The position numbers and the translations under genes are program-made. Source: a virus (lineage: Duplodnaviria; Heunggongvirae; Uroviricota; Caudoviricetes). From it: a stretch of 20,655 nt of DNA. The notes below the pieces were generated by a model that saw only the letters and a program-made list of their open reading frames with translations, was not told the DNA's origin and did no database searches. The DNA lies in IMG/VR virus record IMGVR_UViG_2740892214_000006. The stretch is one strand, 5' to 3'. Below are positions 1 to 20,655 of this stretch, piece by piece (positions within the stretch are counted from its first letter, which is position 1; each line of letters begins with the position of its first letter).

Positions 1-85
1 AGAAACAGAAGCCACTGGAGCACCTCAAAAACACCATCATACACTAAATCAGTAAGTTGGCAGCATCACCCGTGCCCGAGTCTAT

Positions 86-391
86 ATGCTGCGTACTGGT
101 ATAGAGGGATGGACAGAAAATGACATTCTTCGCTACTGCCGTCTGTCTTCTGGTCGTAACTATGCAACAGAGTTAGAACGCCAGCTTGGAATCACTCTGG
201 AGCGTATCGACGAAAAGAATCCTGATGGTATCGGAACACACCTTCGCTACCGTTTCTCCTGCCGTGGTGATGTTCTGAAAGTGATCACTCATGTTAACCA
301 TCTTGCGAACATAAATGATCACAACGGACTTTCTCAGCAGGAAATTGCCGACATTCTGAAACTCTACCCGGACGCGTTTAACGCCGCCTAA
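86..391 (+). CDS. hypothetical protein (101 aa)
   Basis: First ATG after an in-frame stop at 53-55; ORF ends 12 nt before the next same-strand gene; weak SD; no family recognised. Confidence 0.5.
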   Translation: MLRTGIEGWTENDILRYCRLSSGRNYATELERQLGITLERIDEKNPDGIGTHLRYRFSCRGDVLKVITHVNHLANINDHNGLSQQEIADILKLYPDAFNAA

Positions 392-403
392 CGGAGACTG
401 AAA

Positions 404-1237
404 ATGAACATCGAAAAAAGCAGATTAATTTCTGAGGCCGCCCCTCATCTGAACGCCTCTCTGGGCACAATTAACGGTAATGAATTTGCCGCAATTGTCC
501 CGGTTATTCCTGGTCATATCGGTGGGCGTGAAACCAATATTGTTAGCGCAAAAGCGTTACACAAAGCGTTGGGCGTGGGAAAAGATTTCTCTACATGGAT
601 CACTGATCGCATCTCTGAATATGACTTCACCATTGGGCACGATTACTCAGTCCATAAAACAATCTCCCCAAATTTGGGGAAAAGCCCGAATGGCGCGCCT
701 TACAGCAAGATTAAGCAGTCTGGCAGACCCGGCAAAGACTATCTGTTAAGTGTCGGAATGGCGAAAGAACTGGCAATGATCGAACGCAATGATCAGGGTC
801 GCGCTATCCGTCGTTATTTCATCCAGTGCGAGGAAGAATTACAGCGTAGCGTGCCTGAAATCGCCGCCCGCTATCGTCGCCAGCTAAAAGCCCGTATCAG
901 TGCCGCAAACAACTTTAAGCCAATGTGCGATGCGCTGAATATGGCCCGTGCCGAGATGGGGAAAACGACGCAGCAACACCACTACACAAACGAGAGCAAT
1001 ATGATTTCTCGTATCGTTCTTGGTGGGCTAACTGCTAAGCAGTGGGCGCGGATAAATGGCTATTCTGGCGAACCTCGCGACCATATGAACGCAGAACAGC
1101 TTGAGCACCTCTCATATCTCGAAAGCACCAATATCACGTTAATTGATATGGGCATGGAATATGAGCAGCGCAAAGGAGAACTCACCCGCCTGTCGCAACG
1201 CTGGCTCGCCAAGCGTCTGGAGGCGGTCCATGTTTAA
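404..1237 (+). CDS. phage antirepressor-like regulatory protein (AntA/AntB-type N-terminal domain)
   Basis: 277-aa ORF with SD GGAGAC upstream of ATG 404. N-terminal segment GRETNIVSAKALHKALGVGKDFSTWITDRI resembles the AntA/AntB antirepressor domain as recalled; C-terminal half unassigned. Confidence 0.8.
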   Translation: MNIEKSRLISEAAPHLNASLGTINGNEFAAIVPVIPGHIGGRETNIVSAKALHKALGVGKDFSTWITDRISEYDFTIGHDYSVHKTISPNLGKSPNGAPYSKIKQSGRPGKDYLLSVGMAKELAMIERNDQGRAIRRYFIQCEEELQRSVPEIAARYRRQLKARISAANNFKPMCDALNMARAEMGKTTQQHHYTNESNMISRIVLGGLTAKQWARINGYSGEPRDHMNAEQLEHLSYLESTNITLIDMGMEYEQRKGELTRLSQRWLAKRLEAVHV

Positions 1238-1412
1238 GCCGACAGGAACACCACAACCTCAAAAACGCTACAAAGATGCCCACGGAGCACTCGTTACTGT
1301 CGAAAGCGTGTCTCACAACCGAGTGACGTTTTATCGCGACGGGTATCAATCGCCATGCGTACAACCGCTGGCGCGTTTCATGAAGGAGTTCGCGGAGGTT
1401 AACAAATGCTAA
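1230..1412 (+). CDS. small hypothetical protein (60 aa)
   Basis: ATG 1230 preceded by GGAGG (1219-1223, 6-nt spacer). Start overlaps upstream stop (ATGTTTAA) and stop overlaps next start (ATGCTAA), indicating translational coupling. ORF-track start 1143 is a TTG and probably not used. Confidence 0.5.
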   Translation: MFKPTGTPQPQKRYKDAHGALVTVESVSHNRVTFYRDGYQSPCVQPLARFMKEFAEVNKC

Positions 1413-2434
1413 CCGTCCAGAAGAAGACATTTTCACTGGCTGGTATGTCGCCAAAATACAGCAATATGACAGCAAAGTCAGGCATTAATACAGCAGATAC
1501 AAGCAAAGTTTATCATTTGCTGGTGGTAGGAGCGGATGCCTTAACTATGTCAGAAATTACGGTCGATGGTGTTAGCGTTGAGAAGGTCAGCGGCTGCGCC
1601 AGAGAATTTCTGGTCGTAGATCACCTGTTCTGCTCGTGTAGTGACTCCACAAAAACATTCGTCCACGTGCGTGACGTTAACGAAATGAGCGCGATGTATT
1701 GTGCATCTGGTGCTTCCAATAGTGAGTTTTCGGAGTCCATAAAAAAGAGCTTGCCGTTATGCGGCAACACGGTTTATGGTTATAAGGCACCTCATAAAAC
1801 GGGTGCCGGGATTAGGACCCCGCAGGCAATCGAGGCGATACATGACGCGCCAGCGTCTTTTTTTGTATCGGCGCACACGCACACCTTATCAATGGTGGGC
1901 TGTATGGGGCTGACTTCGGTCAGGCTGGTTTCCTTGATTGCCAGTAGTCCTAACCCTGTACAGTCCACCGCCAGCGAGCTTAGGACCTCCGGCGGTGGCT
2001 ATAAACCATCAATCAAGGAGGCTGCCACATGCTGGCTACTACCCCTACCCAAAAACCGCAATTTATCTGGATTATCGCCGCAGTTCGCCGCGATTGCCCG
2101 ACAATTACCGCCAAAATTCATCATATTGCTGCCGAGTCTGAACGCGATGCTCGCCGTTCTCTGGTGCGCGATCACGTCTGCTTTTTTGCTGGTCGTATCC
2201 GCATGGAGGTGGCACATGATTAAAACCTACGATGTGCATATGGATCCCCTCGAACGCACAAGCCAGATCATCACACTGACAGAAGTGATTAACGACATTC
2301 TGGTGAGCAACTCTCCCTCACGAGACGAAAGGCTGAAGGCGTTACTCGCGATATTGGATCTCGCCGTTCGTGACGTTCATTTCCTGCTGGAAGGTGGACA
2401 AATGCCAGTAAAAACGGGGGCAACCAATGAATAA
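1406..2434 (+). CDS. hypothetical protein; long ORF of uncertain structure (N-terminal ~150 aa protein-like; last 72 codons from ATG 2216 may be a separate gene)
   Basis: ATG 1406 has SD GGAGG (1394-1398) and is coupled to the upstream gene. Frame stays open 1029 nt. Translation of about 1900-2215 looks off-frame-like (L/S/P-rich), and ATG 2216 has its own SD GGAGGTGG. Confidence 0.4.
2029..2223 (+). CDS. small hypothetical protein (64 aa), alternative frame embedded in the long ORF
   Basis: Strong SD AAGGAGG (2015-2021) 7 nt before ATG 2029; stops in this frame at 1981 and 2002 just upstream. Stop TAA 2221-2223 overlaps ATG 2216 (ATGATTAA). Charged, protein-like composition. Confidence 0.35.
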   Translation: MLATTPTQKPQFIWIIAAVRRDCPTITAKIHHIAAESERDARRSLVRDHVCFFAGRIRMEVAHD

Positions 2435-2621
2435 CTCAATTAATACCCCTCGCCTTACGTCCGCACTTCAATTAATCGAGCAAGCAGCGGCTGTCCTGGT
2501 TGCTGTCAGTCTTTCGGCTGAAGAAATGGACGCTGCTGATGTCGTGGATGCGATTAAAGCGTGCTCATCTTTGGTTAACGATGCCCGTGCCGAGCTGGTA
2601 ATTCTTGGGGGTGAAAAATGA
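2427..2621 (+). CDS. small hypothetical protein (64 aa)
   Basis: ATG overlaps upstream stop (ATGAATAA); G-rich SD ACGGGGG upstream; part of a coupled chain of small genes. Confidence 0.55.
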   Translation: MNNSINTPRLTSALQLIEQAAAVLVAVSLSAEEMDAADVVDAIKACSSLVNDARAELVILGGEK

Positions 2622-2881
2622 ATATCAACTCAATTTATCGTCATCCGTGTGAGCTGGAAATTGAATCATTGCTGGGGCGCGAAGAGCCATATCCAGACAC
2701 ATTCACTCCTGCAGATTGCGCGACTGAACGGCTTACCAGAGCGCGCACAGGTCTGGTTCATGTGATGAATGAGATTGTTCCCTCGGTGGGAGGGGAACAG
2801 GCGACAGTAATCAATAGCTGGCTACAAAAAGTTACCTTCCTGATAGATATCGGTTTAATCGATGTGGAGAGTGCGAAATGA
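2618..2881 (+). CDS. hypothetical protein (87 aa)
   Basis: ATGA overlap with upstream stop; SD GGGGGTGA 4 nt upstream. Confidence 0.6.
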   Translation: MNINSIYRHPCELEIESLLGREEPYPDTFTPADCATERLTRARTGLVHVMNEIVPSVGGEQATVINSWLQKVTFLIDIGLIDVESAK

Positions 2882-3099
2882 CCAACATCCAGCTCATTGA
2901 AGCGCAATGTCGCATCGAACAGGTTCAGACTGTTTTAGGGTTCTGGCTTGAAGGGGCCAGCCCAAGCAACAGAGACAAGTTAATGATTGGCGCGGTTATG
3001 TCACTGCTCAATGGCGTACCAGAAGCTATTCAGGAAGCGGACGAATTGTTGGGCAAATATGAGTTACAGAATCATTCAGGCGAGGCGAAACATGAATAA
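2878..3099 (+). CDS. hypothetical protein (73 aa)
   Basis: ATGA overlap with upstream gene; SD GGAGAG upstream. Confidence 0.55.
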   Translation: MTNIQLIEAQCRIEQVQTVLGFWLEGASPSNRDKLMIGAVMSLLNGVPEAIQEADELLGKYELQNHSGEAKHE

Positions 3100-3694
3100 T
3101 TTCTTAACTTTCCATGCAGAAGCAACGCCTGACGGCGTAAACATCATGTACCGCAGCAACGATGGCATGACAGAACGCGTTGAGGCCGTCTCATATATTG
3201 ATGCCGTAAATCGTCTGGATGCCGGGGATTATGACGATAAACCAGATGAAGGTATGTCAATACATCTCGCTATTGCCGATGGCGGCAACCAGGGATATTT
3301 CGATTACACATCACAGCATAACGTCATTATGTGGAGATGGCTGATCGCAACAGTATTCATGCTGGAAATGAGAGAGGAAAACGGCACTGTCAGCATCATT
3401 GATGATACTGGCAATCCTTCCGAAGTGGCTGTTTATTCCAACGGCATCGTCGCCATGCCGCTGTATCCAGTAGCAGAGCGCCTCGCTATGGCAAACAACA
3501 TTGAGGGCGCGATGATAGAACGTTTTGGCATCGAGTCTGGCACAGAACGCGCCATCATTTTCTACAGAGCCATGATGGATGTGGAACAAGGAGCACTGAC
3601 TCCATTTGGTCGTGAAACGCTTGCTGAACTTCACAACAGCTTTATAGCTGAACTGAATGAAAACGGCATGCCAGCGGAACCAGTGACGCACTGA
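3092..3694 (+). CDS. hypothetical protein (200 aa)
   Basis: ATG 3092 overlaps upstream stop (ATGAATAA), SD GAGGCG upstream. The ORF-track start 2987 lies inside the upstream gene and is judged too far 5'. Confidence 0.65.
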   Translation: MNNFLTFHAEATPDGVNIMYRSNDGMTERVEAVSYIDAVNRLDAGDYDDKPDEGMSIHLAIADGGNQGYFDYTSQHNVIMWRWLIATVFMLEMREENGTVSIIDDTGNPSEVAVYSNGIVAMPLYPVAERLAMANNIEGAMIERFGIESGTERAIIFYRAMMDVEQGALTPFGRETLAELHNSFIAELNENGMPAEPVTH

Positions 3695-3704
3695 GGATGG
3701 AGCC

Positions 3705-4046
3705 ATGATTACTAAAAATTTCCGACTGAATGCGCTGGCAAATAAGTATGCGTCGGCACTGTATAACCACATTACCTCCACCAGCGGCGGGGACTATTTC
3801 ATGGTTGATGCGGACGGCGAGGCCGTACGTGTGGAAATCGTCAATGGAGTAAAAGGCGTTCGCAGCCTGATCGATAGCTACACACTGGCAGCCATGAAAG
3901 TGTTCTACCCGCAGTGGGAAACCGTGGGGATCGAGCTTCTTGAGCGTTGCGTCACTAAGGACGGATTGACTGACGTCGGGCGTGAGATATGGCAAAGCAT
4001 GGTTAATGACATGGGCGCAACTGTAGCGGGAGGTTCTCATGCGTGA
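3705..4046 (+). CDS. hypothetical protein (113 aa)
   Basis: SD GAGGATGGAG 5 nt before ATG 3705; starts 10 nt after upstream stop. Confidence 0.65.
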   Translation: MITKNFRLNALANKYASALYNHITSTSGGDYFMVDADGEAVRVEIVNGVKGVRSLIDSYTLAAMKVFYPQWETVGIELLERCVTKDGLTDVGREIWQSMVNDMGATVAGGSHA

Positions 4047-4410
4047 AAATGCAGAAATGGCGCTTAGCTCCGCAATCGGAGAGCAGGTGGCAAAGATTGC
4101 TGGTGCTGTGTGGATTCATAACCTTCATTCTACTGGTGAAGAGAAAATGGCAATTCAGACGCCAGAGGGACGCACCATTACTACATCTCTGAAGCCGTCA
4201 GATGTTTGTGATCTGATTTGCGCATTCATGTACCCAGCAATGAGGACTGTCCACGGCGATAAGTGGAAACTTGCGACAACCGCTGAATTTGATATGTGGC
4301 TAAACAATGATGGCATGCTGACTGATTACGGAATAACCAAGTGGCAGATGCTGGTTAGCCATATCGCAAACGCTATAGACCACGTGGGGTACGGTGATGC
4401 GAAACATTGA
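4039..4410 (+). CDS. hypothetical protein (123 aa)
   Basis: SD GGGAGG upstream of ATG 4039; overlaps upstream stop by 8 nt; stop overlaps primase start region. Confidence 0.65.
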   Translation: MRENAEMALSSAIGEQVAKIAGAVWIHNLHSTGEEKMAIQTPEGRTITTSLKPSDVCDLICAFMYPAMRTVHGDKWKLATTAEFDMWLNNDGMLTDYGITKWQMLVSHIANAIDHVGYGDAKH

Positions 4411-6748
4411 TCTTATCCGTCAGGTTATCAGTGCGTCTGAAAACAACTGGCCTCATGTGCTGGGCTGCCTGAACATAAATGTCCCTGACTCTCCGCGCCA
4501 TCATGCTCCCTGCCCTGCATGTGGGGGCAAAGATCGATTCCGGTTCGATGACAACGGGCGCGGTAGCTTCATCTGTAATCAGTGCGGCGCTGGTGATGGG
4601 CTGGATTTAATTAAACGCGTAAATAACTGCGACACAACAGAGGCGGCGCTTCTTGCCGCTGATGTTCTGGGTATTGATTACCGGACAACGGAAACACCAG
4701 AAGCCACCAGCCAGAAACGGGAACAACTGGAAACCGAGCGCCAGCGACGCGAACAGGAGCGCCTGAAAAGGGCAGAGAAGGATGAACAACAAAGACGGGA
4801 TACGTTTTCCCGTCAGTTTGATGACATGCGCAGAAAGGCTGTAAACGGCAAATCTGATTATCTGGTTGCGAAAGGGGTAGGTGATTTTACATTCCCCGTG
4901 TTGCCAGATGGATCTCTATTGCTGGCGCTGGTGGATAAATCCGGCGCAGTCACAGCAGCACAGACTATTACCTCACATGGTGAAAAAAGACTCCTGACAG
5001 GTTCGGCAAAGCGGGGGGCATATCACGCCATAAACGCACAGAAACGACCTCACAGCATCATAATTGCTGAGGGGGTGGCTACCGCCCTGTCGTGCCATTT
5101 AATTCGCCCTGACGCAATGACAGTGGCAGCAATCGACGCTGGCAACCTGTTGCCAGTAGCGGAAGTCATGCGCAGAACATATCCACAGGCACAAATCATC
5201 ATTGCCGCAGATAACGATCACCAGCAAGGAAACTCCGAAAGTGGAGGGATCAACACGGGGAAAGATGCCGCAGAGAGGGCCGCTATTTCCGTAGCTGGCT
5301 GGGTGTCTCTGCCACCGACTGACTATAAAGCCGACTGGAACGACTATCACCAACAACACGGGCTGGCGGCAGCCACAGCAGCATTTAAAGATTCGATGTA
5401 CCAGCCACGGGGGAAAGGGGCGCAGGTGAAAAATCACAAACAGTCAGTCGGGGCGCTGAATGAGATCAGTTCTGGCGAGGTGTTAAGCGATGATGAAATT
5501 GCTGTCCTCGAAGAAATCAACCGGACGTTTACGCATGTCACCATCGGCGGGAAACACAAGGTGGTGTCGCTAAAGCCTTCTCAAACCGGCGGTGTATCGC
5601 ACGTTTTCGAGGATTTATCACAATTTCAGCATTATTTTCATCATAAACCGAGAGTCGCCAGAAAGCTGGCGGGATCGGCGTGGCTGTCATGGAGTGGGAA
5701 GAACTACAAGCCAGGAGGCGTAGGATTTTATCCAGTACCAGACAAATGCCCTGACGATGTTTTTAATCTGTATGAGGGGCTGGCACTGGAACCAATTGAA
5801 GGAGATTGCACGGTATACCTTAATCACCTGTTGCAGGTTGTCTGTGCCGGTAATGAAGAGGCATACCAATATCTTATCCAGTGGATGGCGCACATTATCC
5901 AAAAGCCTGATGAAAAACCGTCCGTGGCAATCGTGATGAAATCTGTCCCGGGCACAGGGAAAGGCACAACGGTTAAACCACTGCTGCAAATACTGGGGCA
6001 GTACGCCGCCCACATTAACGGGGCGGGACATATTTCAGGGCGCTTCAATTCAATACTTGCTAACAAGCTACTGGTATTTGCTGACGAAGTGACGATCCAC
6101 AAGCCGTCTGAAGCTGACAGACTTAAAGCGATTATTAGCGAACCGACGTTTAACCTTGAGCGCAAGGGAATTGATGCTGAACCAATGCCGAATTTTGCCC
6201 GGTTGATATTTGCCAGTAACAGCACACAGGTATTACAGGCAGGGATAAGAGAGCGTCGCTATCTCGTGCTTGAGCCATCTCCTGAAAAAGCACAGAGCCG
6301 GGAGTATTTTGATCGGCTGTACAGTTGGCTTAATGATGGCGGTGCCGCAAAGTTGCTTTGGCATCTTAAAGGGGTGGATCTCTCAGGTTTTGACCCTCAA
6401 CGAGCGCCACAGACCGATGCCTTACGTGAAGAAATCTTGCTGGGGCTGTCTGGCGTTGAATTGTTTCTTTATGGCGAGCTAATCAATGAACCTCCGTTTA
6501 ATGGCGAAGTCCGTTTGTTTGCAAAGGATATGGTTAGTCGATTTGTAGCGTGGTCGCTTGAGCGTGGGGAAAAGCTTAAAGAACCAGCAGCCAGATCACT
6601 ACTGGGTAAATCACTTGCACAAATGGGGCTGGTGAAGCATGGAAGACCAGACCGAGGGAATGGCGTGTTCTACGAACTACCAGAGGTCGGAGTTCTACAG
6701 GCTGCGTTTGCCCGTCTGATCGGTATGGGGGGATATGATGTTTTTTAA
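4394..6748 (+). CDS. P4-alpha-type DNA primase / SF3 helicase (replication initiator)
   Basis: 784-aa ORF (GTG 4394 or ATG 4397). N-terminal zinc ribbon CPACGG...CNQCG, TOPRIM-like motifs IIIAEGVATAL and IIIAADNDH, C-terminal Walker A SVPGTGKGTT and Walker B LLVFADEV. Iteron clusters lie immediately downstream. Confidence 0.95.
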   Translation: MMRNIDLIRQVISASENNWPHVLGCLNINVPDSPRHHAPCPACGGKDRFRFDDNGRGSFICNQCGAGDGLDLIKRVNNCDTTEAALLAADVLGIDYRTTETPEATSQKREQLETERQRREQERLKRAEKDEQQRRDTFSRQFDDMRRKAVNGKSDYLVAKGVGDFTFPVLPDGSLLLALVDKSGAVTAAQTITSHGEKRLLTGSAKRGAYHAINAQKRPHSIIIAEGVATALSCHLIRPDAMTVAAIDAGNLLPVAEVMRRTYPQAQIIIAADNDHQQGNSESGGINTGKDAAERAAISVAGWVSLPPTDYKADWNDYHQQHGLAAATAAFKDSMYQPRGKGAQVKNHKQSVGALNEISSGEVLSDDEIAVLEEINRTFTHVTIGGKHKVVSLKPSQTGGVSHVFEDLSQFQHYFHHKPRVARKLAGSAWLSWSGKNYKPGGVGFYPVPDKCPDDVFNLYEGLALEPIEGDCTVYLNHLLQVVCAGNEEAYQYLIQWMAHIIQKPDEKPSVAIVMKSVPGTGKGTTVKPLLQILGQYAAHINGAGHISGRFNSILANKLLVFADEVTIHKPSEADRLKAIISEPTFNLERKGIDAEPMPNFARLIFASNSTQVLQAGIRERRYLVLEPSPEKAQSREYFDRLYSWLNDGGAAKLLWHLKGVDLSGFDPQRAPQTDALREEILLGLSGVELFLYGELINEPPFNGEVRLFAKDMVSRFVAWSLERGEKLKEPAARSLLGKSLAQMGLVKHGRPDRGNGVFYELPEVGVLQAAFARLIGMGGYDVF

Positions 6749-6778
6749 TATAGTCTTTTTACAAGAAGATCGTTTTTA

Positions 6779-6881
6779 CCTGTACCACCTATACCACTTT
6801 GCTAATTCAGCATTAAAAACAGTGCGTTATAGTGGTACAGGTCAATATCTTACCTATACCAGACCTGTACCACCTATACCA
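6779..6881. repeat. iteron cluster 1 (candidate origin / cis replication region)
   Basis: 18-bp direct repeat CCTGTACCACCTATACCA at 6779-6796 and 6864-6881, with an inverted core copy TGGTACAGG at 6832-6840; immediately 3' of the primase gene. Confidence 0.6.
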
Positions 6882-6924
6882 TTAACAAACGCATTTCTTC
6901 TGGCTGGCTGAGAGGGAACAACCA

Positions 6925-7155
6925 ATGATGAGCACACCATTTTACAAAGTGCGCCAGTTAGCTTCTTCCTCTGGCTGGCAGCTACGGTTTGAGGGGCGTT
7001 CAGACTGGCTACCCATTGCGGCATGGGCGAATGTTGAAATGTGTATTGACGGCGATACCGTTGAAATCATTATTCCCTGCGTGGCAAGTCGGGACGGCTG
7101 TATAGAGCCAACAGATATGGCAGCAGAAATCAGAGAGGTAAAACATGAACAATAA
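6925..7155 (+). CDS. hypothetical protein (76 aa)
   Basis: SD GAGGGAA upstream of ATG 6925 (second ATG at 6928); 11-nt overlap with the next gene. Confidence 0.5.
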   Translation: MMSTPFYKVRQLASSSGWQLRFEGRSDWLPIAAWANVEMCIDGDTVEIIIPCVASRDGCIEPTDMAAEIREVKHEQ

Positions 7156-7882: not shown

Positions 7883-7887
7883 ATAAA

Positions 7888-7991
7888 TGGTACAGGTCTG
7901 TACAGGTGGGGAGAGGTCATTTTTACCCACCTGTACCACCTGCAGGCCGCGCCACACAAGGGTTTGTGACATGGTGGTACAGGTGGTACAG
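7888..7991. repeat. iteron cluster 2 (candidate origin / cis replication region)
   Basis: Core copies in both orientations: TGGTACAGGT 7888-7897, CTGTACAGGTGG 7898-7909, CACCTGTACCACCTG 7928-7942, GGTGGTACAGGTGGTACAG 7973-7991; shares CCTGTACCACCT with cluster 1. Confidence 0.6.
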
Positions 7992-8356
7992 CAAAAACAG
8001 CGATTTTCTTTATAAGGTATGTTTTGCTCATCTGGCAGACGGAGGTATTCGCTGCGGTTTGGCACGTAGCCCAGAACAGCAAAGAGTTTTACGAGACTTT
8101 TGTAAAATCCAGTGTACAAGGGCGTGACGTTTTTGAAGGAGAGACCTACGAAATTTTCGTAGTTCAAAAAATAGCCTCTGAGATGTTGTTATGCCTGTTC
8201 AGCAAACCATCCGCATAGCTGATCGCGAATCAAATTACCAATGGAGCCAGAAGCAAGGGCAGAACTGGAAAGCGCCTGCCGTGAAGAGTAATGCGACATC
8301 ATAAATATAGTTTTTAGAGTCCATAAAAAACCTGTCAAAACCTGACATACAGAACG

Positions 8357-8390: not shown

Positions 8391-8419
8391 TGCTATTTGT
8401 TTCATATTTTGCAATCACA

Positions 8420-8646: not shown

Positions 8647-8662
8647 AAATGGATGGCATCGC

Positions 8663-13195: not shown

Positions 13196-13214
13196 TGAAT
13201 GGCCACGGATGGCC

Positions 13215-13640
13215 TCAATCTTTATTCTTTGAAATAGAGTCATTGATCTTTTCGAAACACCAATGAAATCCACAAAAGAGAGCTACACCAATATAACAAT
13301 ACAAAACTATCAACCACCTTTCAGTGTCCGAAGGGTAAAAAACATCAATTACATAAGCAACACCAATTGGTATTAATGCTAGTAATAACATCGACACAGG
13401 ACGTACAAACTTCTGAACTATATCAATTTTATAGAACCACAAGGCGGTATGTTTAATGATATAAGTAAAGATGGCTGCGCCAATAATGGCAAAAAACACC
13501 ATCGATAAAGTCGGGTATAACTTTGCGACAATTAAACCCAACAAAATAATTATAACTGCCTGCCCCCTCACACCAACCCTCCCTTTAGCTTTGTTTAGAA
13601 TGGCAATCATCATATATCCAAGACATGGCATTTGGTACAT
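13215..13640 (-). CDS. small integral membrane protein (4 predicted TM helices); candidate superinfection-exclusion protein
   Basis: 141-aa ORF convergent with the ejection-protein operon; four hydrophobic segments; markedly AT-rich (moron-like); occupies the position of sieA in P22-type genomes. Weak RBS, start uncertain. Confidence 0.6.
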   Translation of the reverse strand: MYQMPCLGYMMIAILNKAKGRVGVRGQAVIIILLGLIVAKLYPTLSMVFFAIIGAAIFTYIIKHTALWFYKIDIVQKFVRPVSMLLLALIPIGVAYVIDVFYPSDTERWLIVLYCYIGVALFCGFHWCFEKINDSISKNKD

Positions 13641-13764
13641 AGCTTGGGTCGGGATTTCAAATCCGCTCCCAGTTGATGGGGCCGTTACAGTACGCGCATA
13701 TCCGCTTTATGTGAAACAGGAAGATTTTTCTGATATCACTGCCACAGCAAAACACCAATTTCGA

Positions 13765-13780
13765 GACAAGTACGCGCGCG
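13765..13780. repeat. GACAAGTACGCGCGCG motif, copy 1
   Basis: Exact 16-mer shared with copies at 14050 and 15333; alternating CG palindromic core. Confidence 0.6.
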
Positions 13781-13788
13781 AGGGGTAT

Positions 13789-13812
13789 CAGTTGCAAAAA
13801 GTTTTGCAACTG
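13789..13812. promoter_or_regulatory. operator-like perfect palindrome CAGTTGCAAAA-AG-TTTTGCAACTG
   Basis: 11-bp inverted arms with a 2-nt spacer, in the 450-bp intergenic region upstream of the membrane-protein gene. Confidence 0.4.
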
Positions 13813-14049
13813 CGTCCGACCAGTACGCACACAATGGAGGGAAGTACCATAAAACTGTTCTCTACATAAGACAGAGTGGTGGTGATGTGTTGATTATCGG
13901 CGTATATGCGCACAGGACGCGCTATGACAATGTTTTATGCGGGTACACCAATCACATGTATCTGATGTGATAAATCGCGTTACATGACATCTCTGTTGTG
14001 CTGGTGGTTATCACGACTTTCTGAATCTGGCCTTTGCCTGATATTTTGC

Positions 14050-14065
14050 GACAAGTACGCGCGCG
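14050..14065. repeat. GACAAGTACGCGCGCG motif, copy 2
   Basis: Exact 16-mer; extended palindrome TACGCGCGCGTA; lies about 30 nt beyond the 3' end of the small - strand gene. Confidence 0.6.
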
Positions 14066-14093
14066 TAGCATCGACAGCATACACATTGGATAT

Positions 14094-14315
14094 TCATTTT
14101 GTGACCAATGCGATAAGTAGCGGGATAAGAATTGATAAAATCAACAGGCCGATGATCCACTTTTGATTTTCACTGGCCTTATCTCTATTTTCATCAATCT
14201 TATCAATAATTCGACGCTCCAAGCCGTGCATATCACCGCGAATGGCAATCATCTCATTGCGAACATCCGAGAAGTGGTTGGCTTGATGTTCAATGTGTGG
14301 CGTTCTGCCTTTCAT
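14094..14315 (-). CDS. small tail-anchored membrane protein (73 aa)
   Basis: Hydrophilic charged N-terminal 50 aa followed by one C-terminal TM helix (WIIGLLILSILIPLLIALV); AGGA upstream of ATG. Confidence 0.5.
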   Translation of the reverse strand: MKGRTPHIEHQANHFSDVRNEMIAIRGDMHGLERRIIDKIDENRDKASENQKWIIGLLILSILIPLLIALVTK

Positions 14316-14394
14316 TCCTGATCCTCACCTATCGTCACCACCTGCTGGTGTATAAAGGTATTGGCCCAAGCAGCTTTCCAATGGGCACTCATGT

Positions 14395-14850
14395 TTATAC
14401 GCTGACCTTACAATCAATCACCGCTTTTAACTTTTCAGCATTGCTTCCCTGACGCTTCCACGCGCTGTAAATATCTTTATCCCACGCTTTACCAGCTTTT
14501 GTTTGATAGCCTGCTTCATTGATCCGTTCAGCTATCACACGCCCATTATCAAATCCCTGTTGGATGGTATCGGCAATGATCTTTATAACTGCCGTTTCGT
14601 TATATGGTTTTGGTGGGATGTTCGGCTTTCCGGCAATAAGCGACGCAGCGGCTTTTTCCATGCGCTCCACCAGCCCAAGCATTCGTGAATCAATAGACTT
14701 TTCCGGCTGCCCCAGCTTCATGCGAATCGCATCAACAAGCCAGGAGGTTTTATCTCCTCCAGAAGCGAGAACAGACCGATTAAACTCATCCTGCAATTCA
14801 GATGGGATGCGGAACGCGATCAGATTAGATTTGCTCATTGCAAAGACCAT
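14395..14850 (-). CDS. RHH-domain (Arc/Mnt-like) repressor-like protein with C-terminal extension (151 aa)
   Basis: N-terminus has an RHH signature (beta-strand LIAFRIPSEL followed by helices); divergent from the PerC-like gene across an operator-like region. Start could be ATG 14850 or 14838. Confidence 0.65.
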   Translation of the reverse strand: MVFAMSKSNLIAFRIPSELQDEFNRSVLASGGDKTSWLVDAIRMKLGQPEKSIDSRMLGLVERMEKAAASLIAGKPNIPPKPYNETAVIKIIADTIQQGFDNGRVIAERINEAGYQTKAGKAWDKDIYSAWKRQGSNAEKLKAVIDCKVSV

Positions 14851-14867
14851 ATCAGTGAGTAATATCC

Positions 14868-14899
14868 ATACAGTATACCACTGTATAACACTGTTATAC
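14868..14899. promoter_or_regulatory. operator-like repeats in a divergent promoter region
   Basis: Inverted repeat ATACAGT (14868-14874) / ACTGTAT (14880-14886), followed by direct repeats ACTGTATAAC / ACTGTTATAC (14880-14899), between divergent genes. Confidence 0.4.
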
Positions 14900-15002
14900 G
14901 CTCAAATATCAGCCAGAAAATAACGGACCAATCACAAAGCTATCGCTGTGTTGTTGGTTCAGAGCTGGGCTGTGTTGGTTCAAAATAATCTGAGAGGCAG
15001 AA

Positions 15003-15284
15003 ATGATAAGGGACAGGAAAGCTGAAGAGCTGGAGTCAAAAGGGCTATACCGGAGAGCTGCCGCACGATGGATGGAAGTCATGCTGTTATGCACCGAGGA
15101 CGATGATCGGGAATGGATAAAGCGCCGCCGTGAAACGTGTCTGGAGAACGTGAAGCGCCCGCCCGTGAAGGTTGAGGACTTTGGCGACCTGCATAAAGCT
15201 GTTACCGAAACGCAACACCGCATGGGGATAGCGCAACCGAACGGTAACGCCTTCCGGTTAAATGGCGGCAAGAGGCAAAGGTAG
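15003..15284 (+). CDS. PerC-family-like transcriptional regulator (93 aa)
   Basis: SD GAGAGG 5 nt before ATG 15003. Motif EELESKGLYRRAAARWMEVM...DREWIKRRRETCL matches my recollection of the PerC/Pch family signature. Confidence 0.65.
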   Translation: MIRDRKAEELESKGLYRRAAARWMEVMLLCTEDDDREWIKRRRETCLENVKRPPVKVEDFGDLHKAVTETQHRMGIAQPNGNAFRLNGGKRQR

Positions 15285-15288
15285 ACCA

Positions 15289-15310
15289 CCAGAGGGAAAT
15301 CATCCTCTGG
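15289..15310 (+). terminator. possible weak terminator hairpin
   Basis: 7-bp stem CCAGAGG / CCTCTGG with 8-nt loop, 5 nt after the PerC-like stop; the downstream T-tract is poor. Confidence 0.3.
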
Positions 15311-15332
15311 CTGGCGGTTTCTGGTATTTCGG

Positions 15333-15350
15333 GACAAGTACGCGCGCGCG
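15333..15350. repeat. GACAAGTACGCGCGCG(CG) motif, copy 3
   Basis: Same motif with one extra CG, giving the palindrome TACGCGCGCGCGTA; about 50 nt after the PerC-like stop. Confidence 0.6.
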
Positions 15351-15581
15351 TAGCACCCAATCGGTGAGGAAATAGCGGCGACCTGAATGGTCAAAATCAC
15401 AACGCAGCTATCCCCGTAAGCAGCGCTTAACGGAATAGCAGTAACCTGAATCCAGTGGGGAGGGGGTAGTCAAATCTCTACAGCCCTGACTATCCGGGAC
15501 TGCCCGCCCCATCGTTTTTTTATACCCGCGAAAAATGAAATTTAATCCGGGCGTGTTTCATCCTTCCAGAGGGTATGACGT

Positions 15582-15767
15582 ATGACACCACGCGAAATAG
15601 CCTTATTGACCATCGCCAAACTTGAGCACGGAGGCCACCAGCTTACACAGGCAGATCAACGGGAGATAGAACGATCAGTTAATGCCGATATAGCCCGGCG
15701 CGACAGGTTCCGCGAAATGATGCGAGCACCTGCCTACCAGTGGAAGAAGCCAGCGCCGCGCAGGTAG
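15582..15767 (+). CDS. small hypothetical protein (61 aa)
   Basis: ATG 15582 with AGAGGG about 9 nt upstream; charged and Arg-rich; no family recognised; could be spurious. Confidence 0.35.
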   Translation: MTPREIALLTIAKLEHGGHQLTQADQREIERSVNADIARRDRFREMMRAPAYQWKKPAPRR

Positions 15768-15887
15768 ATATGGGATTATTCCACATGTAACTTATGCGTA
15801 TTAAGCAAATTTCCTTTATTCACCTTTACAGAATTGTGAGTACGTCAGTATCGTTATCCTTCCGATTCGCATTTATTCAGGATTTGC

Positions 15888-16430
15888 ATGTACCAGCTAA
15901 AGATAACCATCCGAGACAGCAAACCACCTATATGGCGGCGTGTGCTGGTTCCAGAGCAAATCCCCTTTAGTAAACTTCATGCCGTGATCCAGTTAGCTTT
16001 TGGCTGGAATGACGAACACCTGTATATGTTCGAGAAAGGGCGTAAAGGTGATCCAGGTAGCGAGTATCGCGTATGGGGTGAGGATGAAAGCATGGGTAAC
16101 GCGGCAATCACGCCACTATGGGCGGCGCTCCAGAATGAGGGTGACAAGCTGGTTTACACGTATGACTTTGGCGACTGGTGGGATTGCGTCATTGTGCTGG
16201 AGAAGCAAACACACGATACGAGTAATCAGCCCATTAGCTGCCTGCGTGGGAAAGGCACCACCCCGGCGGAAAACTCAGGCGGCTTGCATGGTTACAATGA
16301 ATTGCTATTACAGGCCAGAGAGTCTGATAATCCTGAGCAGGCCGAGATCCACAATTTCCTGATGCTGGATATTGAACGCCGGGTTTACGACCTGAGCCGC
16401 ATCAACGACAGATTGCAGGCTATTTACTGA
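15888..16430 (+). CDS. plasmid pRiA4b ORF-3-like (PRiA4_ORF3) domain protein (180 aa)
   Basis: N-terminal YQLKITIRDSKPPIWRRVLVP...LH.VIQ.AFGW..EHLYMF matches the PRiA4_ORF3 signature as recalled; AGGA 5 nt before ATG. Confidence 0.8.
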   Translation: MYQLKITIRDSKPPIWRRVLVPEQIPFSKLHAVIQLAFGWNDEHLYMFEKGRKGDPGSEYRVWGEDESMGNAAITPLWAALQNEGDKLVYTYDFGDWWDCVIVLEKQTHDTSNQPISCLRGKGTTPAENSGGLHGYNELLLQARESDNPEQAEIHNFLMLDIERRVYDLSRINDRLQAIY

Positions 16431-16782
16431 CCCGCATGTATTCACCTGATATTGCGTTGTCAGCGCCGCCAGTATCGCGCATAACAGCGCACTGACCGGG
16501 TAAACCGTAGCGCACGACCGTTGCGTTAGTATCACCGCCGCGCCGTATCTGGCGCGATTCATACACTGTCACCCGCTCAAGCAGTCCACCAGCAACCATG
16601 CTTTCCAGTGTGCGCCGGGTTGATTCGAGCTGGTGACGCTTATCGAACGACACCATGCCATGAAGCAGGTAGGCCACACCCGACACATCGAACGGCGGCG
16701 CACCAATCTCACCAGTCACCCATTCGAGGTTATCCGGTTCAAAGTAGCTAAGTATCTCTTTTTTGCGACTGGTCATTCTCAT
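16420..16782 (-). CDS. hypothetical protein (120 aa)
   Basis: Protein-like ORF convergent with the PRiA4_ORF3-like gene (3' ends overlap by 11 nt); AAGGA about 10 nt upstream of ATG 16782. Confidence 0.6.
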   Translation of the reverse strand: MRMTSRKKEILSYFEPDNLEWVTGEIGAPPFDVSGVAYLLHGMVSFDKRHQLESTRRTLESMVAGGLLERVTVYESRQIRRGGDTNATVVRYGLPGQCAVMRDTGGADNAISGEYMRVSK

Positions 16783-17013
16783 GGCTGGCTGATTCCTTAT
16801 TGTGGGATAGCACTATCATACAATAAGTGGGTTAAAGGGAGAGCGTTACCGCCTGATATGCTGTATGAATAACAACCAAATTTCAGGGGCGGAAAAAGAT
16901 ATGGGGGTACTTTTGGGGGTATCTATAAAAAATGAACAATAAAAAAGGCAACAAAAACAAAGATTATCGCCTATGTGTATTGTTCCTATTATCGCACCAT
17001 TTAAATCAATAAG
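16783..17013. other. attP-like region with core resembling a tRNA-Thr 3' end
   Basis: AT-rich 230-bp non-coding region just 3' of int. 16983-16999 TTCCTATTATCGCACCA resembles the 3' end of thrW as recalled (CTCCTATTATCGGCACCA) with a 1-nt gap. No 5' tRNA portion upstream. Confidence 0.45.
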
Positions 17014-18177
17014 TTACACATCATTAGTACCTTCCTTATTTTTTGACTGGGACAAATTTGGGACCGATGGGTTCAGGATCGAGTCTATTTGCCGTGCGTG
17101 TTCGGTAAGGTGATTAGGTGCAAGGTGAGCATATCGACGAACCATTTCGATAGACTCCCAGCCTCCCATTTCCTGTAACACTGACAACGGGACTCCGGCT
17201 TGAACCAGCCAACTTGCCCAGGTGTGTCTCAAGTCGTGAAATCTGAAATCATCAATACCAGCCCGTCTCAGCGCCGCTTTCCAGGCTGTGTTTGCGTCAT
17301 ACCGCATCTTCCTTACTGTTGGCGCTTTCGTTCCGTCTGGTTTGGTACAGCTTTCCTTGTACACAAATACCCAACGGTGATGATTCCCGATTTGTTTTTT
17401 CAATACGCGACATGCAGTATCATTCAGCGCAACGCCAATTGCGCGGTTTGATTTACTCTCTTCCGGGTTTATCCATGCCACCCGGCGCTGCATATCTATT
17501 TGTTGCCATTCAAGGTTGATGATGTTCGAGCGTCTTAAGCCTGTTGCCAGTGCAAATTCAACAACAGACTTTAATGGCTCCGGACATTCATCAATCAGCC
17601 TTTGTGCTTCATGGGGCTCCAGCCAGCGGATCCGTTTATTCTTTGGTTGAGGCACTTTAATAATTGGTGCCTTATCCAGCATTTTCCATTCACGCTCTGC
17701 GGCTCTTAGTAGGGCCTTTATAAATGAAAGATGCGTAGCCTTCGTTGCAACGGACGCCGGTTTTGGCGTGTATTCTGGAACAGGTTTCCCTTTTTTTCTG
17801 CATGCTTCTGCCCTGAGTTTCCAGTTTTCCTCATGACGCCGGTTCGTCATTTTCTGCATTGCTGAATAAATTTTTGATTCAGTAATGTCTCTTAGTTGCA
17901 TTCCTGCGAAATGTTGAAGCCAGAATCCGATCCGGCTTTTGTCATCGTCCAGTGATTTTTTATGTGCTTTCTCTTCAAGCCACCTGACACACGCTTCCTC
18001 GAACGTTATATCAGGTATTTCACCAAGTTTGCTGACCCGCCATGCTTCAGCCTTTAGCTTGTCATGGAGTTCTGTCGCCTGCCTTTTGTCCTTTGTTCCA
18101 AGAGACTGTTTAAATCTTTTACCGTTCGGCAATGTGAAACTGGCGTACCATATTTCACCTCTGCGGAAGAGTGACAT
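17014..18177 (-). CDS. int: tyrosine integrase, P22-type
   Basis: 387 aa; N-terminus [28 protein letters not shown] matches my recollection of P22 Int; catalytic motifs [10 protein letters not shown] and RRYAHL; strong SD GAGGAAAG upstream. Confidence 0.95.
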
Positions 18178-18404
18178 TTTCTTTCCTCTGTTATGCCATC
18201 ACCCGCGCTCACCTGGACAGTATGCAGCGGAGACTGAAGAGCCGCAATGCAGGCTTGTCGTGTTGTGAGGTAAGGAGATTTATTCTTAGTGGGATCTTTG
18301 CGTGTTGCCTGAAGACGCCCTGTGCGTATCCAGTTAATGGCAGTCGGTCTGGATATCTTGAGAAAATGACAGGCCTCATCGAGTGTGAGGCTGTATGGCT
18401 CCAT
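18054..18404 (-). CDS. xis: excisionase, P22-type
   Basis: 116 aa from ATG 18404 (the ORF-track start 18488 is upstream); SD GAGGTGA before ATG; [33 protein letters not shown] is excisionase-like; 3' end overlaps the int start by 124 nt. Confidence 0.85.
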
Positions 18405-18709
18405 TATTTCACCTCTTGTTGTGACATTGTTGAAAAATGGATACCAGCTCGTTGCTGCCAGACGATCCAACCGAGAGTCATATCCCATGCCATGTATTCG
18501 TTATCGCCGTTTTTTGCTCTCCGACGATCTACTAAGTCACCGAAACGCTTTTCCATGAATAATTCATAAGCTTCGCGTTCATCTGGTTCTACTTCCAGAG
18601 ATAGGAGTGCGATTTCATAAGCACGGCGCTCAATATCGTCTCGCACGTCAAGGCTGCTGATACGCTCTTTAATTTCTTTAATCAGTTCTTTGTCGGTAAA
18701 AGTGGTCAT
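18404..18709 (-). CDS. hypothetical early-left-operon protein (101 aa)
   Basis: Acidic protein-like ORF; start overlaps upstream stop (TAATG) and stop overlaps the xis start. Confidence 0.6.
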   Translation of the reverse strand: MTTFTDKELIKEIKERISSLDVRDDIERRAYEIALLSLEVEPDEREAYELFMEKRFGDLVDRRRAKNGDNEYMAWDMTLGWIVWQQRAGIHFSTMSQQEVK

Positions 18710-19065
18710 TATGCTCCAGCCTCCGGTGCTTTTGGCATTACTGCCCAGTGAGTGATATTGACGTTTTCAAGATCCCCGACCTGAAATGTCCACTGCCATT
18801 CTCCGGTTTCTTTTTGTCCCCAGGTGTACCAGAGAGAACGCCAGCCAATTAGCCAGCCTTCTCCGTTAGCATCGAATAACAAAACACTTTCATTTGCTGG
18901 TGGCAGTTCAGTTGACACTGGTATTACTTTGTTTTCCTGTGCTGCACATTTAGCTTCAAGCGCATCGAATTTACGCACCAGGTATTCAGCATCTGTTTCA
19001 TTCACTTTCAGATCTCGCGGTACACATCTCCCACGAAGAAACCCTTCCATTTCGAAAACATTCAT
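18709..19065 (-). CDS. hypothetical phage protein, Trp-rich (DUF551-like?)
   Basis: Likely start is ATG 19065, overlapping the HD gene stop (ATGA); ORF-track start is 19071. Trp-rich segment GWLIGWRSLWYTWGQKETGEWQW...ITHWAVMP. Confidence 0.65.
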   Translation of the reverse strand: MNVFEMEGFLRGRCVPRDLKVNETDAEYLVRKFDALEAKCAAQENKVIPVSTELPPANESVLLFDANGEGWLIGWRSLWYTWGQKETGEWQWTFQVGDLENVNITHWAVMPKAPEAGA

Positions 19066-19598
19066 GCGCATTTGCGTAACTCCGATAACTCGTTAAAACG
19101 TTCCATAAACATCCCGTAGGCATGGCCCGGTGCCTGTGGAATCACTTTGAACATCTCTGTTGCCGGGATACCTTCCAGTACAGGCCAGAAAGAGCCATCA
19201 TCAAGCCCGAGATCGCGGCGTTCGGTTGCCAGCATAATGAGATCGGCATATTTCACTGGCGTGCTCATAACAGGAGGTAACCCGTATTTCTCACGGATTA
19301 CGGCGTCTATTTTTTCTTCCATCCGTTTATAGTCAGGAAGAAGTCGTTTCAGTGGTGCGGGGATGTCCTGGCAATATGCTTCTGTTGCATCATGCATTAA
19401 AGCTTCAAAAGCAAATTCCTGTGGCACCAGCTGGCTGCAAAGCACCGCATGTTGGGCGACACTGTAGAAGTGTGAAAGATGTCCTGCAAAGCGACAGATA
19501 TTTGAAAGGGAAACCGCGATATCGTTAATAACGATGTCGTCTTTATTTATCCTGTCATAATAAAAATGCTTCCCGGAAAAAGTTTTAATAAATGACAT
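19062..19598 (-). CDS. HD-domain phosphohydrolase (YfbR-like 5'-deoxynucleotidase family)
   Basis: Start ATG 19598 with SD GGAG upstream (ORF-track ATG 19625 lacks one). Motifs H...H (FAGHLSHFYSVAQHAV), HD (ALMHDATEAY) and DIPAPLK resemble YfbR. Confidence 0.85.
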   Translation of the reverse strand: MSFIKTFSGKHFYYDRINKDDIVINDIAVSLSNICRFAGHLSHFYSVAQHAVLCSQLVPQEFAFEALMHDATEAYCQDIPAPLKRLLPDYKRMEEKIDAVIREKYGLPPVMSTPVKYADLIMLATERRDLGLDDGSFWPVLEGIPATEMFKVIPQAPGHAYGMFMERFNELSELRKCA

Positions 19599-19639
19599 TT
19601 TGTTCTCCACGTATATGCGCTGCACCGCGCTGAATTCGG

Positions 19640-20140
19640 GTAAAAGGAAGCCCTCACCGTCCGGCGATTATTGAGTCAATTACATTTCCATAAATGCCCC
19701 CGTAGGGGCGGTTAGTTTCTCCACAAAACAGAGAAGAACACCTGCGGTGGCAGCCGCCCGGATGGATTGGGTTATGAGCCCGTCGTCCGGTGATGCTCTT
19801 CTCTGTTTTGTAAAAAGGACGGTACCAGCCGGAAGCAAGGGTACAAGCTGGTACCGCCAAGACTACACACAGCATAAAGTTGTGGTGCCGGGTGCCTCCC
19901 GGTGCCTGGCGAAGGTTGCACACCAGGCGGGTGGGTATCCACAGAAGGTCGACTGTCAGCCTCAACCTTAACCCGCGTGCGCTGAGCCGCATTCACCACA
20001 ACGCTAAGGATTCTCTCTGGTTGAAAATACTTAGCTGTTATGTGCCTGCTTTTAGCCACATCAGGCGAGGTGGACCTAGTTATTCCCCAACAACAAGGAT
20101 TCGGTTAATCTGGTTATCCCCAACAACGTAAAAGGAAAAG
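19640..20140. other. GC-rich structured non-coding region (candidate ncRNA or recombination/regulatory site)
   Basis: About 500 bp with only overlapping Arg/Pro-rich ORFs on both strands. 14-bp inverted repeat CAAAACAGAGAAGA / TCTTCTCTGTTTTG (19724-19737, 19797-19810) encloses 59 nt with nested hairpins; 9-bp stem GGTACCAGC / GCTGGTACC (19821-19855); more GC hairpins to about 19950. Confidence 0.3.
20080..20127. promoter_or_regulatory. tandem repeats TTAT(T)CCCCAACAAC upstream of a low-GC gene
   Basis: Copies at 20080-20094 and 20114-20127, 16-50 nt upstream of ATG 20143; candidate operator or promoter element. Confidence 0.35.
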
Positions 20141-20142
20141 AA

Positions 20143-20577
20143 ATGTCCGGTAATATCTATACGCTGTACAAATCCCACTGTGAAAATGTTGGAAAGTATC
20201 GGGGCATTGAAATCAGTGGGGTAGTGTCATCAGTCGAAATAAGCAAAGTTGAATCAAGGGCAACATTACTTACTCTTTTGGACCTTGTCTTACATGAGCA
20301 CCGGAAGAAATTCGGCACTCCCTATAATCAGTTGAATGGGAAAAAGGCTCTGGTTCACCTTATTCTGATGAAGCATCACTGGATGCCAAAACAGATTAAT
20401 GAGATGAAATTTGATGAACTTCTTCTTTCAATTCAGGATGAACTCACACTTGATAAAATAAGCGTAACCGCCCAGAAATTTTTAGATTATCGAGACTGGA
20501 GATCACAAATTCATCACTTTGATGATTTTGACGAAAATGAATGGGATCCTAATTTGTCTGCACAATATCTAAAGTAA
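20143..20577 (+). CDS. hypothetical protein (144 aa), low-GC moron
   Basis: AAGGA upstream of ATG 20143; coding sequence is AT-rich next to a GC-rich upstream region; no family recognised. Confidence 0.65.
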   Translation: MSGNIYTLYKSHCENVGKYRGIEISGVVSSVEISKVESRATLLTLLDLVLHEHRKKFGTPYNQLNGKKALVHLILMKHHWMPKQINEMKFDELLLSIQDELTLDKISVTAQKFLDYRDWRSQIHHFDDFDENEWDPNLSAQYLK

Positions 20578-20655
20578 CATCCTGGGCACTGTTGCAAAGT
20601 TAGCGATGAGGCAGCCTTTTGTCTTATTCAAAGGCCTTACATTTCAAAAACTCTG

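Follow-up and report, generated by a model that had tools for sequence, protein, structure and literature searches.

Composition of the contig

The stretch of DNA analysed here, the IMG/VR virus record IMGVR_UViG_2740892214_000006 (20,655 nucleotides, hereafter the window), is the entire draft contig BBUW01000054.1 of assembly GCA_001592595.1, which encodes the 705-amino acid protein (11078-13195) described below. Megablast divides the window into two parts. Positions 71-17017 match chromosomal islands in many Escherichia coli genomes, including MS15236 and the enterotoxigenic strain H10407 (97.5-98.7% identity), and positions 16984-20584 match one arm of the Sf phages. The outermost nucleotides on both sides belong to insertion sequences (IS).

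1-70: end of IS1, a 100% match to IS1 ends in 4962 E. coli genomes; this is the left contig break, and it truncates the island
20585-20655: end of IS26, a 100% match to IS26 in 3371 genomes; this is the right contig break

With IS copies at both ends, the assembler met repeats and the contig stopped there, so the absence of a gene past the ends is uninformative about the replicon. Very probably, the window consists of two tandem mobile elements from the E. coli thrW (tRNA-Thr) hotspot on an IS-bounded chromosomal contig. Positions 71-17017 would be a phage-inducible chromosomal island (PICI) resembling EcCIMP1, a satellite of P22-like podoviruses, and positions 16984-20584 a separate prophage arm of the SfIV type. 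An initial annotation, made from the sequence alone, had taken the window for one mosaic phage element, which does not hold for two elements flanked by IS ends. Its observation that capsid, tail, terminase and lysis genes are missing was borne out, as family scans for capsid, portal, terminase, tail and lysis proteins gave no match in any scanned open reading frame (ORF) of the window.

The att junction and the prophage arm

The two elements meet at a short att sequence, which is followed by the integrase, excisionase and early-left genes of the prophage.

16984-17017: att junction, a short copy of the thrW 3' end (TTCCTATTATC-GCACCATT), read from the alignment as island attR fused to the prophage int arm
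17014-18177, minus strand: tyrosine integrase of a thrW prophage of the SfIV/SfII/SfV type (100% amino acid identity to SfIV Int, 98.6% nucleotide identity; PF00589)
18054-18488, minus strand: excisionase of the same prophage (HTH_17; annotated as excisionase in SfIV)
18404-20584: early-left accessory genes of the SfIV-type prophage, including an HD-type 5'-deoxynucleotidase at 19062-19625

Positions 16880-17060 were aligned with the SfIV attP, the right end of the H10407 island, and thrW. Only about 19 nucleotides of the 46-bp thrW/attP core are kept (TTCCTATTATC-GCACCATT, 16984-17003, with one base deleted), and the 5' 29 bp of the core are missing from the window; SfIV carries the full thrW-identical core (…ATTCGTAATGCGAAGGTCGTAGGTTCGACTCCTATTATCGGCACCA…). 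The left flank of the junction is identical to the right end of the H10407 island, which in that genome abuts the chromosomal yagP/pao genes, and is unlike the phage P arm. The right flank is identical to the SfIV int arm. The att core of EcCIMP1, TCCTATTATC, has its right-end copy at 16985-16994, inside the retained segment, and its left end lies outside the contig. A tRNA scan found no tRNA gene in the window, and the att copy is thus only a fragment. Judged from the alignment, the junction is a hybrid in which the island attR is fused to the prophage attL, as in a tandem array at thrW. The SfIV-type arm would adjoin the island at the att core that both derive from thrW, and IS26 cuts the arm at its other end.

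The initial annotation had described an apparently intact attP core. The attP configuration of an SfIV- or P22-type prophage was rejected, as it needs the 46-bp core together with both P and P' arms, and the left arm here is island DNA. Integrase and excisionase genes of the P22 type are indeed present, but they belong to the prophage arm and not to the element that carries the replication and ejection genes. The Shigella phages SfIV, SfII and SfV, which have thrW integrases of the P22 Int type, are 98-99% identical to positions 16984-20584. However, only the int-xis-early-left arm of these phages is found here, island DNA stands in place of the gtr side of attP, and IS26 truncates the arm. 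Approximately 1.3 kb of the SfIV early-left region (the DUF2303/YfdQ region; L005 6616-8465) is missing from the window arm at 19625-20143. The ORFs called at 19654-20059 look spurious.

An island of the EcCIMP1 type

EcCIMP1 is a 19,963-bp PICI of E. coli MP1 located at the tRNA-Thr between proA and yagU, with the att core TCCTATTATC (Pick, Stadel & Raivio, ISME J 2025, PMC11773190). Circularisation depends on the P22-like helper phage vB_EcoP_Kapi1, which must be both present and induced; excision at the core requires its own int and alpA, and induction of Kapi1 switches on alpA (PMC11773190). Kapi1 particles transduce EcCIMP1 at low frequency, and the island adds superinfection immunity against Kapi1 in lysogens (PMC11773190). 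Pick et al. identified no structural genes, and considered EcCIMP1_017-019 ('DNA transfer', DUF2824) candidate packaging genes (PMC11773190).

The left part of the window island contains the following backbone and replication features.

86-391, plus strand: IS1-truncated, conserved backbone gene of 143 amino acids, of which the C-terminal 101 codons remain (99-100% identity to the 3' part of the 432-bp gene in MS15236, H10407 and MP1)
404-1237, plus strand: antirepressor of the AntA/AntB type (PF08346, 1.4e-21; phrog_5817)
1230-1412, plus strand: DUF4222 small protein (PF13973, 6e-25)
1406-2434, plus strand: Ash-family protein (PF10554, 2.5e-14)
2427-4410, plus strand: six small conserved backbone ORFs (64, 87, 73, 200, 113 and 123 amino acids), 89-100% identical to EcCIMP1 and kept across genera; the 200-amino acid ORF matches phrog_1515
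4394-6748, plus strand: primase-helicase (Zn_Ribbon_Prim, Toprim_3 and DUF5906 P-loop domains; phage primase PHROGs)
6778-6880: iteron cluster 1, six ACCTRTACC copies, a putative origin
6925-7882, plus strand: two ORFs (76 and 245 amino acids) between the iteron clusters, part of the DUF5906 replication-module allele and absent from EcCIMP1
7889-7984: iteron cluster 2, three ACCTGTACC copies, partly inverted

In MS15236 and MP1 the first genes of the island, next to tRNA-Thr (thrW), are its own integrase gene and a small helix-turn-helix gene, followed by the 143-amino acid gene, AntA, DUF4222, Ash, the small ORFs, the primase, the ejection block, PerC and PRiA4_ORF3. The window joins this series inside the 143-amino acid gene, straight after IS1. 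The island integrase (P4-like in the relatives) and alpA are present in MS15236, H10407 and MP1. The window has neither, as IS1 breaks the contig within the gene downstream of alpA. The int and alpA genes of this island would lie beyond the IS1 break, and their linkage to the island in this genome may or may not persist. We also considered whether the hit H34 shares the IS1 junction of the window and rejected this; its IS1 is a different one, located inside gp16 and at another chromosomal site.

The window and EcCIMP1 alternate between nearly identical and replaced segments. Positions 71-5418 (AntA, DUF4222, Ash, the small ORFs and the N-terminal half of the primase) share 94.5% nucleotide identity with EcCIMP1, with proteins 83-100% identical. 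Identity is 98% across 8083-9955 (a 53-amino acid gene, gp14 and gp7) and 99.75% across 14985-17001 (PerC and the PRiA4 right end). Between these segments, 5418-8083 is replaced (DUF5906, iterons and the 76- and 245-amino acid ORFs in the window; a 918-amino acid DUF927 primase in MP1), as are 9955-13646 (the C-terminal part of gp20, and gp16) and 14074-14985 (a variable region). The G+C content is 0.41-0.42 over 11.5-14 kb compared with approximately 0.50 elsewhere in the window; this low region corresponds to two parts that distinguish the window from EcCIMP1, the gp16 allele and the variable region, and fits a swapped-in module.

Both islands share the thrW locus, the TCCTATTATC core and the lack of head, tail and lysis genes. 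They differ in that the window has no adjacent vat island and its int and alpA are off the contig. On sequence grounds, positions 71-17017 are a modular variant of the published EcCIMP1 type of PICI. In addition, strain L1_E925 (L034 6285-23337, NZ_LR883050.1) carries the same backbone at yicC-dinD with a different integrase, keeping gp20 and gp16; this second site points to mobility and to modular integrases. Of the alternatives offered in the initial annotation, an unconventionally organised temperate podovirus finds no support, and a satellite-like element with replication and ejection genes and without morphogenesis genes fits 71-17017. 'Reduced or defective P22' is a poor description of this region, because complete relatives are approximately 20-21 kb, are bounded by att repeats, and include one that is experimentally mobile (PMC11773190).

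The replication module

The C-terminal half of the primase is a different allele from that of EcCIMP1. Two clusters (6778-6880 and 7889-7984) together hold nine copies of the nonamer ACCTRTACC, compared with approximately 0.14 expected by chance in the whole window. The initial annotation had proposed a P4-alpha-type primase with external iterons. A primase-helicase and nearby iterons are present, but membership in the P4-alpha family was rejected, as the protein scores 20.4 bits against the P4-family model TIGR01613, for which the cut-off is 108.7. The same annotation noted that only 1.9 kb separates replication from gene 14, and the distance measured from the primase stop in the window agrees.

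The island resembles satellite P4 in several respects, namely the tRNA-adjacent integrase of complete relatives, an Ash-family gene, a primase-helicase fusion with nearby iterons, and helper dependence. However, psu, sid and delta were not found in any window ORF, and the primase fails the P4-family model. The helper of P4 is P2, whereas the helper type of the island is a podovirus, and the island carries virion ejection proteins.

A block of P22-type ejection proteins

Downstream of the second iteron cluster is a block of genes matching those of the P22 ejection apparatus.

8485-8646, plus strand: 53-amino acid gene heading the virion-protein cargo slot
8663-9124, plus strand: homologue of P22 gene 14 (DUF2824; PF11039, 1.5e-61; phrog_651)
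9118-9795, plus strand: ejection protein of the P22 gp7 type (PF25688, 1.9e-72)
9795-11093, plus strand: ejection protein of the P22 gp20 type (Inj_translocase; PF16928, 5.5e-48; phrog_917)
11078-13195, plus strand: DNA-transfer protein in the gp16 position, 705 amino acids, with no SLT domain (phrog_6704, 1e-174; phrog_770)

The gp14, gp7, gp20 and gp16 genes are intact and overlapping, and the ejection block proposed in the initial annotation is supported by matches to DUF2824, P22_gp7, Inj_translocase and phrog_6704/phrog_770. That annotation had named as evidence against itself a finding that the 225-, 432- and 705-amino acid proteins are not of virion type; the searches instead returned matches of the P22 gp7, gp20 and gp16 type. 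Classical PICIs of Gram-negative bacteria are recognised by an int-alpA-pri layout and by having no virion structural genes, and this island encodes homologues of gp7, gp20 and gp16, which are P22 virion proteins. The 53-amino acid protein has no family match, and its ribbon-helix-helix look is our own reading only.

Gene order, overlapping starts and stops, and the gp14, gp7 and gp20 families are the same as in Lederbergvirus (Kapi1, P22, Sf101), and the protein in the gp16 position is homologous to those of Kapi1, E212 and Sf101. However, no portal, scaffold, coat, gp4, gp10, gp26, tailspike, terminase or lysis genes were found in the window, and complete att-bounded islands are also without them. 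The block follows a satellite replication module, whereas in P22-like phages it follows gene 26. Comparison with P22-like and satellite DNA, a check proposed with the initial annotation, gave a P22-like ejection block, an EcCIMP1-like island and an SfIV-like region at 16984-20584, and did not favour a single phage.

The 90%-identity cluster to which the 705-amino acid protein belongs has 433 members. At least 80% of 6700-13200 is held by 65 of 5,426 complete E. coli genomes, and many more E. coli genomes share only gp14, gp7 and the N-terminal part of gp20, with approximately 98% identity. Between the window and the island of Leclercia, the ratio of nonsynonymous to synonymous substitution (dN/dS) is 0.07 for gp14 and 0.08 for gp7, with dS greater than 1.4. 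These values suggest that the ejection genes of the island are under purifying selection. A promoter and terminator scan of 6700-13700 gave counts at or below those expected from shuffled sequence. A terminator-like hairpin is located at 8366-8391, upstream of the 53-amino acid gene.

Two E. coli proteins, P0003 and P0004 (559 and 579 amino acids), are 100% identical to 59% of the protein in the gp16 position and also contain the Arm DNA-binding domain of integrases, which suggests that in some genomes this gene is fused to another or is the site of a further element with an integrase.

Island and helper ejection proteins

The ejection proteins of the islands differ from those of the helper. 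Amino acid identity between EcCIMP1 and Kapi1 is 84% for gp14, 57% for gp7, 26% for gp20 and 23% for gp16; the corresponding values for the window and Kapi1 are 85%, 57%, 66% and 41%. The two islands also differ from each other. EcCIMP1 gp20 is 39% identical to that of the window, and the proteins in the gp16 position are unrelated (705 amino acids without an SLT domain in the window, 906 with one in EcCIMP1).

In P22, SieA blocks injection, and the mutations that escape it lie in the C-terminal regions of gp16 and gp20 (Leavitt et al., mBio 2024, PMC10883804). The two proteins must match, as mismatched pairs yield non-infectious P22 particles (PMC10883804). Foreign sets of ejection proteins nevertheless assemble and function in P22 virions, and the set from HK620 is partly resistant to SieA (PMC10883804).

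Sister islands in other Enterobacterales

A scan seeded with the primase and limited to one genome per species yielded 27 loci, many of which share the 143-amino acid, AntA, DUF4222, Ash, 200-amino acid and 113-amino acid backbone genes. These sister islands are located at tRNA-Thr(cgt) or tRNA-Arg(tct). A homologue of the 53-amino acid gene precedes the cargo in most of them; the Pantoea island L007 has it after the SLT protein. The cargo differs between lineages.

Escherichia sp. L008 and Leclercia L027: P22 ejection proteins
Klebsiella michiganensis L011, 17561-20557: full-length tape-measure protein, 998 amino acids
Buttiauxella L014, 15485-18466: tape-measure protein, 993 amino acids, assigned by length and gene layout only
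Pluralibacter L012, 15133-17724: full-length tape-measure protein, 863 amino acids
Lonsdalea L016, 14439-17056: tape-measure protein split into 584 and 315 amino acids
Klebsiella L009, 17927-20548; Enterobacter L017, 14298-16085; Cedecea L023, 16258-18012: SLT-domain lytic-tail or internal-virion proteins
Pantoea L007, 12038-15306: SLT protein and baseplate-hub protein
Apirhabdus L030, 14191-16235: baseplate-hub protein

The Lonsdalea island is 17.6 kb long and bounded by the 19-bp repeat TCCTATTATCGGCACCATT, and the tape-measure protein is its only recognisable virion gene. The Klebsiella tape-measure protein is 58-63% identical, over 92-93% of its length, to those of Hafnia and Enterobacter phages, and the Cedecea protein is similar to the lytic tail protein from Edwardsiella phage GF-2. 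The cargo proteins of the sister islands gave no match in PADLOC. Taken together, the loci suggest a single backbone slot with lineage-specific cargo, each cargo being an envelope-penetrating conduit part of a different virion type. A 208-amino acid ORF in the Pantoea island (L007 16611-17237) has a weak small-terminase match (phrog_57, 8e-08), and could be a packaging gene in that branch.

Tail profiles are forbidden components for PICIs in SatelliteFinder (PMC10085698), and a 2025 preprint states that tape-measure proteins are otherwise not present in satellites (PMC12822802). The mycobacterial EPIPs, and PLE11 by proposal, are satellites encoding a tape-measure protein as the sister islands do; however, their backbones and hosts are unrelated, and EPIPs also encode capsid and connector proteins (PMC12822802). 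Literature searches for satellites with ejection proteins mostly gave nothing relevant, although one led to EcCIMP1, and within the literature searched no discussion of the EcCIMP1 ejection proteins was found beyond Pick et al. An ejection set that differs from that of the helper, together with varied conduit cargo in sister islands, appears to be unreported.

Other genes of the window island

The right part of the island, beyond the ejection block, contains several additional genes.

13215-13640, minus strand: 141-amino acid protein in the position of P22 sieA (sub-threshold Bax1-I and CBO0543 matches only)
14094-14850, minus strand: two small ORFs (73 and 151 amino acids) in the variable region, a stretch that differs from EcCIMP1
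15003-15284, plus strand: PerC-family regulator (PF06069), 99% identical to the EcCIMP1 PerC-family gene
15582-16782: right-end backbone with a 61-amino acid ORF, PRiA4_ORF3 (15888-16430; PF07929) and a 120-amino acid minus-strand ORF (99.75% nucleotide identity to EcCIMP1)

The initial annotation had placed a region of sieA/immI-position genes at 13215-16800. The 141-amino acid protein has a putative multi-pass membrane topology, as read by eye from its hydrophobic sequence and not by a prediction tool. No phage homologue was found by tblastn, and with family matches below threshold a SieA identity was rejected; the other genes of the region are PerC, PRiA4_ORF3 and small genes of no assigned family. 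The 73- and 151-amino acid ORFs have no family or PADLOC match. PADLOC gave no match for the proteins of the variable region and the cargo, and there is consequently no support for a known defence system. We take the counterpart of the window PerC-family gene to be EcCIMP1_025, a PerC-like protein that silences rather than activates LEE1 expression in Citrobacter rodentium (PMC11773190).

A possible role in DNA delivery, and alternative explanations

We tentatively propose that islands of the EcCIMP1 type follow a satellite strategy of bringing their own DNA-delivery proteins, re-equipping hijacked particles to enter cells that exclude the helper; we regard this as possible, though somewhat short of an even chance. 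The primase-helicase would replicate the excised island circle from the ACCTRTACC iterons, and gp14, gp7, gp20 and gp16 would act as late genes of the island, expressed from their own unit. The resulting proteins may be loaded into hijacked helper procapsids and, when a satellite particle infects a cell, would build a conduit for DNA across the envelope. As gp20 and gp16 of the island differ from those of the helper, satellite DNA could gain entry where helper-type particles are excluded. SieA-type exclusion targets these same two proteins and would possibly be bypassed by an alternative conduit. The island unit (19,963 bp in EcCIMP1, approximately 21.3 kb in MS15236) is about half the 39,436-bp Kapi1 genome, making it plausible that two copies are packaged per headful.

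Several observations weigh against this interpretation of the island as a mobile satellite with its own delivery proteins. Int and alpA are absent from the contig. EcCIMP1 is transduced at low frequency and has no effect on Kapi1 titre (PMC11773190). The H10407 variant has a stop codon in gp20 and the L1_E925 variant an IS1 in gp16, and both are without gp14 and gp7. If the blocks were captured independently, selection that acted in ancestral phages could account for part of the dN/dS signal. In the window island we saw neither a pac site nor a small terminase; pac sites vary between P22-like phages, and no search aimed at them was made.

We weighed four other explanations. That the window is one mosaic temperate phage or a defective derivative, in attP configuration with P22-type Int and Xis and with its morphogenesis genes elsewhere, is extremely improbable. 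All modules are on one contig and a thrW-like core lies beside int; however, this reading is contradicted by the junction alignment, in which the SfIV similarity begins exactly at 16984, the left flank is the island end that abuts yagP/pao in H10407, and the 5' 29 bp of the core are missing. In addition, complete islands carry an integrase of their own at the opposite end, and the contig ends are IS copies. It is also very unlikely that 71-17017 is a decaying remnant of a P22-like prophage whose ejection genes are debris. The ejection genes do reach approximately 90% nucleotide identity to Kapi1 in places, and some copies are pseudogenised. However, a PICI-type backbone is kept across genera without other P22 genes, the units are bounded by att repeats, EcCIMP1 is mobile, the ejection genes are intact in most copies and appear to be under purifying selection, and other conduit proteins fill the same slot in other genera.

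The two remaining explanations accept the island as a satellite and concern the function of its cargo. The block could have a function in packaging or in hijacking capsids, which is what Pick et al. suggested for EcCIMP1_017-019. It is located downstream of the primase, the usual place of PICI packaging modules, and DUF2824/phrog_651 is labelled 'head morphogenesis', but three of the four proteins specifically match P22 ejection proteins, for which no packaging role is known (PMC10883804), and the same is true of the tape-measure and hub proteins of sister islands; we consider a packaging function unlikely. There is a minor but appreciable chance that the cargo acts in defence or interference, with island gp20 and gp16, tape-measure or hub proteins poisoning the assembly or injection of a helper or competitor, or underlying the immunity conferred by EcCIMP1. 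Such a role would agree with the added immunity against Kapi1 in lysogens, with the tail-assembly-interference systems that PICIs are known to carry, and with the non-infectious P22 particles produced by mismatched gp16/gp20 pairs. However, EcCIMP1 does not lower the Kapi1 titre, PADLOC gave no matches, and complete co-adapted gp7-gp20-gp16 sets are kept rather than single poison subunits.

What first appeared to be a head-less mosaic phage is therefore corrected to a published satellite type beside an ordinary prophage arm on an IS-broken contig, and the 'DNA transfer' genes of islands of the EcCIMP1 type encode a full set of P22 ejection proteins, distinct from that of the helper. If the proposed delivery role is correct, satellites that replace the conduit proteins of stolen particles would explain how they reach cells that block injection. 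Since tail genes are forbidden for PICIs in current finders, such elements would be missed, and detection tools of this kind would undercount these satellites.

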